Shown here in pieces: positions 12,901 through 54,996 of a stretch of 64,000 nucleotides of DNA; within the stretch, counting starts at the first letter, position 1, and each line of letters opens with the position of its first letter. Below the pieces are notes generated by a model. The model worked only from the letters and a program-made list of their open reading frames with translations. It ran no database searches and had not been told where the DNA came from. This DNA comes from Escherichia coli (GTDB lineage Bacteria; Pseudomonadota; Gammaproteobacteria; Enterobacterales; Enterobacteriaceae): NCBI RefSeq assembly GCF_044324875.1, contig NZ_CP172185.1; one strand, given 5' to 3'. A program made the translations under genes and the position numbers.

Positions 12901-13102
12901 TGACATCCGGGCTCGCACCTGGGTAGAGCGTGACTACCTGAATGGTCGGATAGTCCACTTCCGGCAGCGCCGAAACGGGCAGGGCTCGATAACCGATAAT
13001 CCCGGCGAGTAAGATCGCCACCATCAGCAGCGTGGTGGCGACAGGACGCATAATAAACAGGCGCGACGGGCCGCCTGTGCTGCTCGGGGGTAACACCTGC
13101 AT
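9980..13102 (-). CDS. mdtB: RND multidrug efflux permease MdtB
   Basis: 1040-aa ORF, RND family, immediately upstream of mdtC (adjacent stop and start). Confidence 0.95.
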
Positions 13103-14349
13103 CAGGAGCGTGCTCCTTTTTTCGCGTATTCGCGGCTGGTGGCTTTCTCTTCCGGAGTGGTGGCGCTCTGGGCTTCCACTACTTCCACTTTCGCCCCTTC
13201 GGTCAGGCGATCAATGCCGTCCGTCACTACGCGGTCGCCCGCAGAAATACCTGCGCGGATCACCACTTTCTGACTGTCCTGAATGCCCGGCGTCACCAGA
13301 TGTTTGCTGACCTTGTTTTCGCTATTCAGCACCCAGACAAAATGGCCTTCGTTGCCCATTTGCAGAGCGGCGGTGGGGATCACCACGGCGTTTTGTTCGG
13401 TGTCGACTAACATACGCGCGTTAACAAACTGATTGGGAAACAGCGCATCATCCTGATTATTAAAGCGGGCTTTCACTTTAATCGTACCGGTAGTGGCATC
13501 GATTTGGTTATCGAGACTTAACAGCGTGCCTTCACTTAATTTCTTCGAGTTGGTGCGATCCCAGGCTTCAACAACCAGCGGTTTTCCGGCTTTTTGCGCC
13601 TGTACTACGGTAGCGATATCGCTTTCCGGCAGGGTAAAGAGCAAATCGATAGGATGCGTCTGGGTGATCACCACGATCCCGGTGGTATCACCACTGGAGA
13701 TTTGGTTACCAACATCAACCTGCTTGAGACCAACGCGACCATCAACTGGTGCAGTAATACGGCTCCAGTCGAGTTGCAGCTGCGCGCTGGCGACGCTTGC
13801 TTCATCAGCCTTAATGGTGCCTTCGGTTTCACTGACCAGCGCTTGTTGGGCATCCAGTTCCTGACGAGATACGAGATTGGTTTTTGCCAGTTGCTGATAA
13901 CGCGCCAGGTCACGGCGGGCGTTGGCAAGCGTGGCTTTATCTTTTGCCAGTTGGCCCTGGGCTTGTGCTAATGCAACTTTGAACTGGCTGGGGTCAATTT
14001 CTGCCAGTAAATCGCCTGCTTTGACCTGCTGGCCTTCCTGGAAATGTAACGCTATCAGTTGGCCGTCCACGCGGCTGCGCACCGTAACGGTATTAGCGGC
14101 GGTAATGGTGCCAAGCCCGGTGAGGTAACGCGGAACTGCCTGTTCTACGGCGGTCGCCGCCTGAACCGGGGCTAATGGGCCGGAACGCATACCACGGCGA
14201 CCACCCGCTGGCGATTGCTGCGCTTGTTTCGTCGCCCCTGGGGCTGCACTCCGGGAGTCATTGCGGCCTTGCCAGAACCAGAATGCGGCGATGGCGGCGA
14301 TAACCACCACGATTACGATTACCCAACGGGATTTATAACTGCCTTTCAT
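13102..14349 (-). CDS. mdtA: RND efflux membrane-fusion (periplasmic adaptor) protein MdtA
   Basis: ORF track gives 13102..14496, but the internal ATG at 14349 yields [25 protein letters not shown] (415 aa), matching recalled MdtA. Long coiled-coil/lipoyl-type adaptor region. The N-terminal extension was rejected. Confidence 0.9.
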
Positions 14350-14402
14350 CGTTAAGAGTTTCTCTTCCTGAAACGTTTCGCGGAATGATACTAGTGTAGC
14401 CA

Positions 14403-14420
14403 GCCAATAAGGGAGAAAAA
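14403..14420 (-). promoter_or_regulatory. candidate BaeR-binding box in the mdtA promoter
   Basis: Minus strand reads TTTTTCTCCCTTATTGGC, a near match to the published BaeR box TTTTTCTCCATDATTGGC as I recall it, about 55-70 bp upstream of the mdtA start. Confidence 0.5.
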
Positions 14421-14585
14421 TGGAGGAATTATGAAACACTGTCGGGAATCGTCTGAATGACGGGCACATTTGCGAGCACGCATCCAGTAATAACACATGA
14501 AACTATTTTATCTACGCGTTAGCGATAGACTGCTTGCATGGCGAAAGGAGGTAAGCCGACGATTTCAGCGGGACGCTGAAACGGG

Positions 14586-14727
14586 AAAGCCCCTCCCGAG
14601 GAAGGGGCCTTAAATAAGGAAAGGGTCATGATGAAGTGGATCATCATCGTGGTGCTCTTAGTGATTAGCTACCCAGCATACTAAGACTACCAGGGCGGGG
14701 GAAACCCCGCTCTACCCTCACTCCTGA
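14586..14727 (-). ncRNA. Sib-type antisense sRNA (antitoxin) covering ibs copy 1; ends approximate
   Basis: Sib RNAs are known to be encoded fully antisense to ibs ORFs. A GC hairpin at 14589..14610 on the minus strand is followed by a short T run and could be the Sib terminator. The 5' end is not determinable from sequence. Confidence 0.45.
14628..14684 (+). CDS. Ibs-family type I toxin (18 aa, MMKWIIIVVLLVISYPAY)
   Basis: ATGATG start preceded by aaggaaaggg; 18 hydrophobic codons then TAA; sits inside repeat unit 1. Matches the Ibs toxin family pattern. Confidence 0.75.
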   Translation: MMKWIIIVVLLVISYPAY

Positions 14728-14913
14728 AAGTATGCCTTCACGATAAGATTGTCAATCTGCAGGCTTTGCAGTCTGCGATCCTGCCAGCAAATATTCTTTG
14801 CGAGACGTTACGCAATAATCACACTGGAAACTATTTTATCCGCAAGTCAGCGATAGACTGCATACAGGGCGAAAGGAGGTAAGTCGACGATTTCAGCGGG
14901 ACGCTGAAACGGG

Positions 14914-15055
14914 AAAGCCCCTCCCGAGGAAGGGGCCTTAAATAAGGAAAGGGTCATGATGAAGCTACTCATCATCGTGGTGCTCTTAGTCATAAGCTTC
15001 CCCGCTTACTAAGACTACCAGGGCGGGGGAAACCCCGCTCTACCCTCACTCCTGA
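14914..15055 (-). ncRNA. Sib-type antisense sRNA covering ibs copy 2; ends approximate
   Basis: Placed by position equivalence with copy 1 within repeat unit 2. Confidence 0.45.
14956..15012 (+). CDS. Ibs-family type I toxin (18 aa, MMKLLIIVVLLVISFPAY)
   Basis: Same architecture as copy 1, in repeat unit 2. Confidence 0.75.
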   Translation: MMKLLIIVVLLVISFPAY

Positions 15056-15242
15056 AATTATGCCTTCACGATAAGATTGTCAATCCGCAGGCTTTGCAGT
15101 CTGCGATCCTGCCAGCAAATATTCTTTGCGAGTCGTTACGCAATAATCACAGAGGAAACTATTTTGTTCACGCGTTAGCGATAGACTGCATTCAGGGCGA
15201 AAGGAGGTAAGCCGACGATTTCAGCGGGACGCTGAAACGGGA

Positions 15243-15385
15243 AACCCTCTCCCGGAGAAGAGGGCTTTTAATAAGGAAAGGGTTATGATGAAGCACGTCA
15301 TCATACTGGTGATACTCTTAGTGATTAGCTTCCAGGCTTACTAAGAACACCAGGGGGAGGGGGAAACCTCTCCCTAACCCTCACT
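15243..15385 (-). ncRNA. Sib-type antisense sRNA covering ibs copy 3; ends approximate
   Basis: Placed by position equivalence. Hairpin ccctctcccggagaagaggg replaces gcccctcccgaggaaggggc of unit 1 with compensatory changes. Confidence 0.45.
15285..15344 (+). CDS. Ibs-family type I toxin (19 aa, MMKHVIILVILLVISFQAY)
   Basis: Same architecture in repeat unit 3. Flanking hairpins differ in sequence from units 1-2 but keep complementarity. Confidence 0.75.
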   Translation: MMKHVIILVILLVISFQAY

Positions 15386-15564
15386 CCTGAAATTATGTCA
15401 CTCCGCCCTTAGTGTCAATCGACGGCTCTCCGTTCTTGCGAGGCGAATAGCAAAATTTTCTGCGCCGCCGGGCCTAATTCTGAAAGTTGCTTTGCCTGCT
15501 CATATTTCATTGTTGCAGTCGGTATGATACCGGACCTCAATAATTCTCTAAGAAAGGATTTCTT

Positions 15565-16224
15565 ATGAGCGAACAAATCACGTTTGCCACCAGCGATTTT
15601 GCCAGTAACCCGGAACCACGTTGCCCCTGCATTTTGCTGCTGGATGTTTCTGGTTCTATGAACGGTAGACCCATTAATGAACTTAACGCCGGATTGGTTA
15701 CCTTTCGCGATGAGCTGCTTGCCGATTCGCTGGCCTTAAAAAGAGTGGAACTCGGTATTGTGACGTTCGGCCCGGTGCATGTGGAACAACCCTTTACCAG
15801 CGCCGCTAATTTTTTCCCGCCCATCCTGTTTGCCCAGGGCGATACACCAATGGGGGCCGCCATTACCAAAGCCCTGGATATGGTTGAGGAGCGCAAACGT
15901 GAGTATCGCGCCAATGGTATTTCCTATTATCGCCCGTGGATTTTCCTGATCACCGATGGCGCTCCAACCGATGAGTGGCAGGCTGCCGCCAACAAAGTGT
16001 TTCAGGGGGAAGAAGATAAGAAGTTTGCCTTCTTTTCCATCGGTGTTCAGGGGGCGGATATGAAGACTTTGGCACAAATCAGCGTTCGTCAGCCTTTGCC
16101 ACTGCAGGGATTACAATTCCGTGAACTGTTTAGCTGGTTATCCAGTTCGCTGCGTTCGGTTTCCCGCTCCACGCCGGGAACGGAAGTTGTGCTGGAAGCG
16201 CCAAAAGGCTGGACGTCAGTGTGA
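15565..16224 (+). CDS. yegL: von Willebrand factor A (vWA) domain protein YegL
   Basis: 219-aa ORF with MIDAS-like motif near the N-terminus ([12 protein letters not shown]) and the conserved TDGAPTD motif. AGGA SD upstream. Confidence 0.9.
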
Positions 16225-30454: not shown

Positions 30455-30493
30455 CAGTGTATTGGTAGCTAAAAAGCCAGGGGCGGTAGCGTG
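30455..30493 (+). promoter_or_regulatory. JUMPstart element with ops site (RfaH-dependent antitermination) in the colanic acid operon leader
   Basis: cagtgtattggtagctaaaaagccaggggcggtagcgtg contains the ops core GGCGGTAGCGTG (30482..30493), about 180 bp upstream of wza. Confidence 0.8.
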
Positions 30494-44995: not shown

Positions 44996-45060
44996 TAACG
45001 ACAAAAACAAAATTGGCCGTTTCGGTCAGGGCCAACTATTGCCTGAAAAAGGGTAACGAC

Positions 45061-49387: not shown

Positions 49388-49672
49388 TGCCGGATGCGGC
49401 GTGAACGCCTTATCCGTCCTACGGCTCTGTGCTCGGGTCTTGTAGGCCTGATAAGACGCGCCAGCGTCGCATCAGGCACTAAATGCCGGATGCGGCGTAA
49501 AACGCCTTATCCATCCTACGGTTCTGTGCTCGGGACCTGTAGGCCTGATAAGACGCGTCAGCGTCGCATCAGGCACTGAATGCTGGATGCGGCGTGAACG
49601 CCTTATCCGGCCTACGGTTCTGTGCTCGGGTCTTGTAGGCCTGATAAGACGCGCCAGCGTCGCATCAGGCAA
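49388..49672. repeat. BIME cluster: three tandem ~95-bp units of paired REP elements between wzxC and wcaK
   Basis: Three near-identical copies of gccggatgcggcgtgaacgccttatccg.cctacgg.tctgtgctcggg.cttgtaggcctgataagacgcg.cagcgtcgcatcaggca. Confidence 0.85.
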
Positions 49673-54702: not shown

Positions 54703-54962
54703 ATCCCAAGCCAATGTAACAATAATTTAGATAAATAGCGGCAGCTAACATCCCGGCGTCTATGCTTTAAACAAAGGAATGTTACTGTCGTTTTTCTTTT
54801 TAAAACAAAGAATAACAACGAGTTAACCTACTAAGTTTAATCTATTTTTTGTTGGATTTATCCTTGTTTCTGACAGCATTTGGTAAGACAATTGGCGTTT
54901 GAATTTAAGATAGCTTTGCGATAGCTAGCGGGGCGGGGTACATCTTTGGCATTTTGCTAGTG

Positions 54963-54996
54963 CACTGGTAGCTGTTAAGCCAGGGGCGGTAGCGTG
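54963..54996 (+). promoter_or_regulatory. JUMPstart element with ops site upstream of the O-antigen gene cluster
   Basis: cactggtagctgttaagccaggggcggtagcgtg contains the ops core GGCGGTAGCGTG (54985..54996), in the galF to O-antigen intergenic region. Confidence 0.85.

Follow-up and report, generated by a model that had tools for sequence, protein, structure and literature searches.

The mdtA-yegL interval of Escherichia coli is where K-12 carries two small type I toxin-antitoxin pairs, ibsA/sibA and ibsB/sibB. In the window (the whole stretch of 64,000 nucleotides of E. coli DNA that was analysed), the original prediction placed three such units at this site, and the locus raises the question of what the additional unit represents and whether its Sib RNA and Ibs peptide are distinct from those of the neighboring unit.

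A three-unit ibs/sib array between mdtA and yegL

Tandem Repeats Finder reported one array at 14488-15397, with a period of 328, 2.8 copies, 89% matches and a score of 1422, and a MAFFT alignment gave a mean column identity of 88% across the three units. Together with three matches to the Rfam SIB_RNA model (described below), these results bear out the idea of three tandem Ibs/Sib units of ~328 bp each, which are arranged head-to-tail between mdtA and yegL. The span first given for them, 14494-15480, needs correction at both ends, as it starts about 6 bp late and ends about 60 bp too far: the homology of unit 3 reaches the -35 box of Sib (TTGACA) at 15413-15418 and stops there, and the true extent is 14488-15418. 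The array and its flanks are:

13102..14349, - strand: mdtA, left flank of the array
14488..15418, unstranded: three-unit ibs/sib tandem array (Tandem Repeats Finder and unit alignment)
14488-14815: array unit 1
14816-15143: array unit 2
15144-15418: array unit 3, which ends at its own Sib -35 box
15565..16224, + strand: yegL (vWA-domain protein), right flank of the array

Both flanking genes are those found at the ibsA-ibsB locus of K-12, and comparison with the K-12 record confirmed that this is the site in question and that K-12 has two copies there. On alignment to K-12, the sibA and sibB RNAs are 99.3% identical, and no residue differs in the IbsA and IbsB peptides. By this near-identity, unit 3 is K-12 ibsA/sibA (b4667/b4436) and unit 2 is K-12 ibsB/sibB (b4668/b4437), with the same locus, flanks, promoters and fold. 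Whereas K-12 has two units, the window adds a third one adjoining mdtA, and the same comparison identifies this mdtA-proximal unit 1 as an additional sibB-like copy, 92.6% identical to K-12 sibB. The window sibA terminator also has one extra G-C pair compared with that of K-12 (GAGAGGG vs GAGAGGC). Considering that K-12 sibA and sibB map to 15382-15239 and 15047-14912, respectively, the orientation of the window is opposite to that of K-12. Alignment with ibsC, ibsD, and ibsE further separated each unit into a family-wide core module of ~200 bp, from the 5'-UTR hairpin (CAGC...GCTG) to the Sib -35 box, and a spacer of the other ~130 bp that is particular to the sibA/B locus.

Ibs peptides and Sib RNAs of the three units

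All three ibs ORFs are intact and encode hydrophobic peptides of 18-19 aa with the pattern MMK..II..LL.IS...Y, and a Shine-Dalgarno sequence (AAGGAAAGGG) is located 3-4 nt upstream of the ATG in each of them. The three peptides as quoted in the original prediction proved to be exact to the letter:

14628..14684, + strand: unit 1 ibs ORF, MMKWIIIVVLLVISYPAY, extra IbsB-like copy (RefSeq WP_100249716.1)
14956..15012, + strand: unit 2 ibsB ORF, MMKLLIIVVLLVISFPAY, identical to K-12 IbsB (WP_001386899.1)
15285..15344, + strand: unit 3 ibsA ORF, MMKHVIILVILLVISFQAY, identical to K-12 IbsA (WP_010723109.1)

The W-containing peptide of unit 1 had been considered a novel Ibs variant, which is not the case: it is already in RefSeq under the accession given above, an exact copy of the 71-bp region round its ORF is carried by 129 of the 5,426 complete genomes, and Ibs peptides of O157, Nissle 1917, and PRO_A-1370 likewise have W at position 4. 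RefSeq names the identical ORFs of E. coli GMF054 'type I toxin-antitoxin system Ibs family toxin' or IbsA. In the K-12 record, IbsB is described as no more than a 'putative toxic peptide', and for units 1 and 2, whose peptides are of the IbsB type, toxicity is assumed here by homology.

Each ibs ORF lies wholly within a Sib RNA encoded on the opposite strand. Three matches to Rfam RF00113 (SIB_RNA) were detected on the - strand, with 149.5, 143.5, and 139.2 bits (gathering score 56), each covering positions 1-147 of the model, which starts at the Sib -35 box; the + strand scored only 20-23 bits with the same model. In unit 1, Sib spans the entire ibs ORF and the Shine-Dalgarno sequence. The features of the Sib strand, with putative promoters, are:

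14584..14719, - strand: Sib RNA of unit 1, sibB-like, 92.6% identical to K-12 sibB (RF00113, 139.2 bits; fold z = -5.07)
14912..15047, - strand: SibB RNA of unit 2, 99.3% identical to K-12 sibB (RF00113, 143.5 bits)
15239..15382, - strand: SibA RNA of unit 3, 99.3% identical to K-12 sibA (RF00113, 149.5 bits)
14720..14755, - strand: putative Sib promoter of unit 1 (-35 TTGACA at 14755-14750, 17-nt spacer, -10 TACTTT at 14732-14727, start at 14719)
15048-15083, - strand: putative SibB promoter (unit 2)
15383-15418, - strand: putative SibA promoter (unit 3)
14586..14611, - strand: Sib terminator hairpin of unit 1 (11-bp stem, CUCG loop, then UUUCCC)
14914-14939, - strand: SibB terminator hairpin (unit 2)
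15242-15267, - strand: SibA terminator hairpin (unit 3)
14695..14710, - strand: Sib 5' hairpin of unit 1 (GCGGGG-UUUC-CCCCGC)
15023-15038, - strand: SibB 5' hairpin (unit 2)
15355-15374, - strand: SibA 5' hairpin (unit 3)

The Sib promoters (TTGACA-17 nt-TA(A/C)TTT) are identical to the K-12 sibA and sibB promoters, the one of unit 1 matching that of K-12 sibB exactly, and they are tentatively assigned by this homology; their -10 elements, TAATTT or TACTTT, match the consensus at only 3/6 positions. For this reason they were missed by a generic promoter/terminator scan, which found no more sites than in shuffles and picked up only 1/3 terminators, on the wrong strand, and which was not taken as evidence. 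A generic consensus scan of the array yielded no ibs promoter, and the sequence ahead of the 5'-UTR hairpin contained no convincing sigma-70 site in any of the units; judging from alignment with ibsD/E, the ibs start site should lie near 14560-14565.

A GC-rich 11-bp hairpin followed by UUU is present at every annotated Sib 3' end. The three Sib RNAs share a predicted fold composed of an outer stem, the 5' hairpin, a long central hairpin (its loop being TRD1), an AUGAUGA/UCAUCAU hairpin (its loop being P6), and the 11-bp terminator hairpin, and Sib-length segments fold much better than shuffled sequences (z = -4.4 to -5.2; 0/200 shuffles as good). On the basis of family model and fold, we assign the three units to the Ibs/Sib type I toxin-antitoxin family.

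Proposed working of the array

Our main reading, to which we give a probability of about 0.93, is that the region represents a natural allele, three units long, of the ibs/sib type I toxin-antitoxin array on the chromosome, with the mechanism published for the family and with a length that changes by recombination between units. The anatomy of the array, its family, its near-identity to K-12, its RNA structure, and its frequency among strains were observed directly in this analysis. Sib RNAs are known to be ~140 nt long and constitutive and to cover the ibs ORF in full together with its ribosome-binding site, and both the repression of ibs by Sib and the toxicity of Ibs on overproduction have been reported for K-12 members (PMC2943612, PMC4147584); we take expression, repression, and toxicity in the present array from this literature.

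Following the published mechanism, the + strand of each unit would give the mRNA for an 18-19-aa hydrophobic Ibs peptide, and the - strand would give a Sib RNA of ~136-144 nt from its own sigma-70 promoter to its own hairpin terminator. Sib would pair with the ibs mRNA first via TRD1, which lies in the ORF, and TRD2, which lies where translation starts and is aided by the P6 loop; this pairing would block translation and lead to degradation of the mRNA (in which RNase III is implicated), and the membrane-damaging Ibs peptide would not be made. In this reading, the array itself becomes longer, shorter, or rearranged through recombination between units, which explains why strains have from one to at least five of them.

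Divergence of units 1 and 2 at recognition sites

Units 1 and 2 differ at 24/328 positions (92.7% identical). The recognition sites of SibC have been defined as TRD1 at +46 to +68 (P5 loop) and TRD2 at +99 to +115, the latter being aided by the P6 loop (PMC2943612), and the P6 and TRD sites of the array were transferred from this definition:

14610..14628, unstranded: TRD2 equivalent (Shine-Dalgarno/start region), identical in units 1 and 2
14637..14640, unstranded: P6-loop equivalent (ibs codons 4-5), 4/4 bases different between units 1 and 2
14656..14678, unstranded: TRD1 equivalent (ibs codons 10-17), five differences between units 1 and 2, four of them synonymous

Along the 136 nt of the Sib transcript, every one of the nine differences between the two units is located in either the P6 loop or the TRD1 equivalent. 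Such a concentration in 27/136 nt has a hypergeometric P of 1.4e-7, or of 3.3e-5 when the a-priori target set also includes the unchanged TRD2 (46 nt in all). On the other hand, the two units share 53 contiguous identical bases (14584-14636), which cover the Sib terminator, the TRD2 equivalent, the Shine-Dalgarno sequence, and the start codon. With TRD2 identical and this block in common, the two units may plausibly cross-repress each other to some extent.

The shared block bears on the strongest of the competing explanations, namely that unit 1 is a redundant by-product of unequal crossing-over, in other words a neutral variation in copy number in which units 1 and 2 could stand in for each other with both Sib and Ibs. 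Such a by-product would be in keeping with the highly polymorphic length of the array and with the overall similarity of the two units, including their TRD2 equivalents. Moreover, contiguous helices of 22-25 bp through one recognition domain sufficed for repression (PMC2943612), so the Sib RNA of unit 1 could repress the ibs of unit 2, and the reverse. However, the restriction of all nine transcript differences to TRD1 and P6, with P values as low as those given above, is at odds with interchangeable copies. Of the five differences in TRD1, four are synonymous, and the pattern looks like divergence at the level of RNA recognition and not like random drift. TRD2 also requires contact with the P6 loop (PMC2943612), yet P6 differs at every base between the two units. 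Considering both sides, we regard full redundancy of unit 1 as possible but rather unlikely.

The same sites vary among strains, whose alleles form mosaics of them. The P6 types (TCCA, GTAG, and GTAT) and the TRD1 types (Y, F, and W alleles) are combined among strains in all four possible pairings, which points to recombination between units. The mdtA-proximal units are IL..Y then WI..F in O157, LL..Y then LL..F in KO11FL, and WI..Y then LL..F in the window, and unit 1 of the window (WI..Y) corresponds to the P6 loop of O157 unit 2 joined to the TRD1 of O157 unit 1. It is conceivable, if doubtful at present, that the array acts as a small recombination-driven specificity generator, in which the P6 loop and TRD1 would be reassorted among units so that new, partly insulated Sib/ibs pairs may arise, with the shared TRD2 providing back-up cross-repression. 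To our knowledge, there is no explicit earlier description of a modular shuffling of recognition sites at the population level. Han et al. (2010) proposed that duplicated Sib/ibs pairs have diverged at TRD1 and TRD2 for target discrimination.

Hairpin pairing and covariation in the Sib family

The third unit had also been noted for hairpin sequences that differ from those of the first two and nevertheless preserve base pairing, which was confirmed by folding. On the Sib strand, the terminator reads GGCCCCUUC-CUCG-GGAGGGGCU in units 1-2 and GCCCUCUUC-UCCG-GGAGAGGGU in unit 3, and the corresponding 5' hairpins are GCGGGG-UUUC-CCCCGC and GGGAGAGG-UUUC-CCCCUCCC. Pairing is kept in both hairpin types except for one A-C mismatch in the 5' hairpin of unit 3, which would be a G-U pair on the ibs strand. 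The strings originally quoted for the 5' hairpin (gcgggggaaaccccgc; gggagggggaaacctctccc) match the sequence letter for letter at 14695-14710, 15023-15038, and 15355-15374. The second hairpin is real, but its arms had been quoted as a mixture of both strands; the correct + strand sequence is gcccctcccgaggaaggggc for units 1-2 and ccctctcccggagaagaggg for unit 3. This 11-bp terminator with a tetraloop is present in all three units and is continuous only on the - strand.

The paired differences had been read as direct covariation evidence for a selected RNA structure. We examined this across a set of Sib homologues from E. coli strains, species representatives, and K-12 sibC, sibD, and sibE, in which 55 distinct sequences were aligned and the genera Escherichia, Citrobacter, Salmonella, Kluyvera, Pseudocitrobacter, and Phytobacter were sampled. 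The matches listed by a contig pattern scan were mostly chance ones in unrelated phyla, and only those 34 loci (L014-L122) that BLAST matched to Sib were used. RNAalifold predicted 33 pairs, 12 of them with double-sided changes, in a structure that was predicted from the same alignment as the one on which it was tested and on which 98.4% of cells are paired. Column shuffles gave 5.2 ± 1.0 compensatory pairs (0/500 reached 12), and structures slid by 1-3 columns gave only 1-2.

Covariation is seen at each of the five pairs of the 5' hairpin (e.g., GC->AU in 20, GC->CG in 20, and AU->GC in 23 sequences). The terminator is strongly conserved and shows a few independent double changes, which were found in sibC, E. 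albertii, and Escherichia sp. E1V33. In 53/55 Sib sequences, one of its pairs is U-G; on the ibs strand this position would form a C-A mismatch, and the terminator hairpin is accordingly assigned to Sib. The terminator counts are slightly pessimistic because MAFFT misplaces a one-base indel in the sibA terminator, so that three sibA rows were scored as broken at columns 137/151; these rows do pair when folded alone.

A different origin of the paired hairpin differences would be the exchange of whole cassettes by gene conversion instead of stepwise compensation, in which case they would have little bearing on selection. Exchange of this kind does occur: O157 sibA has a sibB-type terminator (L005:1341-1489), Escherichia sp. 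E1V33 has a sibA-like terminator in a sibB-like unit (L103:1794-1940), and the combinations of P6-loop and TRD1 types among strains agree with it. Since terminator types swap between units as blocks, the sibA/sibB contrast within the window is essentially one comparison of two alleles and does not amount to many independent compensatory events. Nevertheless, cassette exchange accounts for the distribution of alleles but not for every allele being a good hairpin. The same stems have undergone different double-sided changes in independent lineages (sibC; E. albertii L016; the 5' hairpin types of sibB, of sibA/Citrobacter, and of sibC/D/E), and covariation over the whole structure exceeds that in the shuffled and slid controls. 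We therefore consider it improbable that gene conversion deprives the paired differences of their bearing on selection. The reading of covariation as a sign of selected RNA structure is supported by the alignment at the level of the Sib family, where the inference is right, and within the window it comes down to the single two-allele comparison.

Copy number in E. coli

The region 14300-15620 (1,321 bp) is 100% identical to E. coli GMF054, in which RefSeq annotates three Ibs toxins, and three-unit arrays are annotated in O157:H7, KO11FL, and EC11 as well. As in the window, the arrays of O157:H7, KO11FL/W, EC11, and GMF054 have three units with a spacing of 328/329 bp and a yegL-proximal ibsA. 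A 105-bp query for the inter-unit junction was found in 5,299/5,426 complete genomes, which accordingly have two units or more, with a total of 8,864 matches. Among 60 junction-bearing genomes taken as a spread sample, where the number of units was taken as the junction count plus one, 30 had two units, 23 had three (~38%), six had four, and one had five. When 40 of 5,422 matching records were sampled at even spacing, rows 1-16 (including O157 and KO11FL) were three-unit arrays, rows 17-32 (including K-12 derivatives) were two-unit arrays, and the rest included one-unit and four-unit arrays.

It could be argued that the third unit is an assembly artefact from a collapsed or expanded tandem repeat, as 328-bp repeats exceed short-read length and mis-assembly is possible, but nothing else speaks for it and its chance is vanishingly small: the three units are mutually distinct (24 differences between units 1 and 2) and do not resemble a duplicated read pile, the three-unit structure was found in 16/16 of the first rows of the 40-record sample from unrelated strains and in about 38% of the 60 sampled genomes, and one complete genome is identical over the whole 1,321 bp. 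For practical purposes the artefact is refuted and the three-unit form survives. The suggestion that triplication is unusual fails on the same counts, the three-unit form being a common allele, present in about one third or more of sequenced E. coli. The two-copy state of K-12 is one allele among several, and two- and three-unit arrays are both common. Fozo et al. (2010, PMC2887945) reported seven Ibs genes in O157 Sakai and five in K-12 and discussed lineage-specific duplications of ibs.

Relation to known systems and significance

The other K-12 members, ibsC/sibC and ibsD-ibsE/sibD-sibE (RF00113), have the same ~200-bp core, secondary structure, and peptide pattern as the units of the window. 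They differ in being located at other chromosomal sites without the ~130-bp inter-unit spacer and in the sequences of TRD1, P6, J1/7, and the 5' hairpin. According to the same paper (PMC2887945), ldrABC/rdlABC and the zorO-orzO system of O157 likewise combine a small hydrophobic toxin with a regulatory RNA and are likewise arranged in tandem in one intergenic region with a copy number that varies among strains. The ldr/rdl and zorO-orzO sequences are unrelated to those of ibs/sib, and Sib covers the complete toxin ORF whereas Rdl and Orz do not.

The locus, the family, its mechanism, tandem duplication, and copy-number variation are already known from the literature and RefSeq, and the array in the window, as a common three-copy allele of a textbook chromosomal type I toxin-antitoxin system, has little import beyond its correct annotation. 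Modular reassortment of recognition sites among units would be a modest extension of the proposal of Han et al. (2010). Anyhow, the natural variation among units sits on experimentally defined recognition sites, and these units may thus serve as ready-made variants for the specificity of Sib/ibs pairs.

Hairpins of the ibs/sib units

Several short hairpins were located in the array, with the following window coordinates:

14563-14579, 14891-14907 and 15220-15236, plus strand: hairpin of 7-8 bp (TTTCAGCG-GGA-CGCTGAAA), one immediately past each Sib terminator
15355-15374, just 3' of the ibs stop codon: Sib 5' hairpin of unit 3 (variable positions at columns 22/36 and 20/40 in our alignment of 55 distinct Sib sequences)

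Alignment reveals that the hairpin beyond the Sib terminators is conserved and that its CAGC/GCTG core is common to ibsC, ibsD, and ibsE. According to the ibsD alignment, this element would be positioned at the extreme 5' end of the ibs mRNA. As for the Sib 5' hairpin, E. coli sibA and the sibD and sibE types have one position at which the Sib strand shows an A-C mismatch and the ibs mRNA strand a G-U pair; in other family members it is the Sib strand that carries the G-U. This hairpin may therefore be under selection on either transcript.

Other RNA elements in the window

An Rfam scan of the window, from which matches above threshold were kept, detected the following elements:

30455-30493, plus strand: first JUMPstart element
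54958-54996, plus strand: second JUMPstart element
45007-45056, plus strand: algC RNA motif
49445-49612, minus strand: two adjacent copies of naRNA4 (REP-derived)

These matches agree with the colanic-acid and O-antigen gene clusters, which are located past yegL in E. coli.

Broken and possibly recombined copies in other genomes

Two incomplete copies were observed. Enterobacteriaceae bacterium UBA5654 (locus L116, 6601-6681) retains just the 3' half of a Sib/ibs module, which begins with the P6 hairpin and extends through the terminator, and unrelated sequence occupies the place of the 5' half; the copy is a truncated relic. The sibD-like copy of Escherichia whittamii (NZ_JACSQI010000008.1; locus L101, 5828-5972) is interrupted within the terminator and turns into GGGCTGTCTCTTAT near the contig end. 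Because the latter sequence is similar to the Nextera/Tn5 mosaic end, this break is probably adapter carry-over in the assembly rather than biology.

The mdtA-yegL intervals of strains 19AR0253 and Nissle 1917 each contain two units and lack ibsA. Their yegL-proximal unit has a sibA-type promoter flank (TTGACAC/ACAAGGG...GTGACATAATTT) fused to a sibB-like body, an arrangement consistent with inter-unit recombination causing deletion. Among neighboring genes, yegL of E. coli EC11 (locus L010, 2446-3071) and yegI of PRO_A-1370 (locus L003, 4324-4465) are annotated as frameshifted pseudogenes.

Sequence comparison also revealed mosaics at the Sib 3' end. The sibA copy of E. coli O157 180-PT54 (locus L005, 1341-1489) carries a sibB-type J1/7 region and terminator (TTTAAGGCCCCTTCCTCGGGAGGGGC) on a sibA body, and a sibB-like unit of Escherichia sp. 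E1V33 (locus L103, 1794-1940) has a sibA-like terminator (AAACCCTCTTCTTCGGGAGAGGGT). Given these two terminator mosaics, the Sib 3' end appears to have been swapped among adjacent units.
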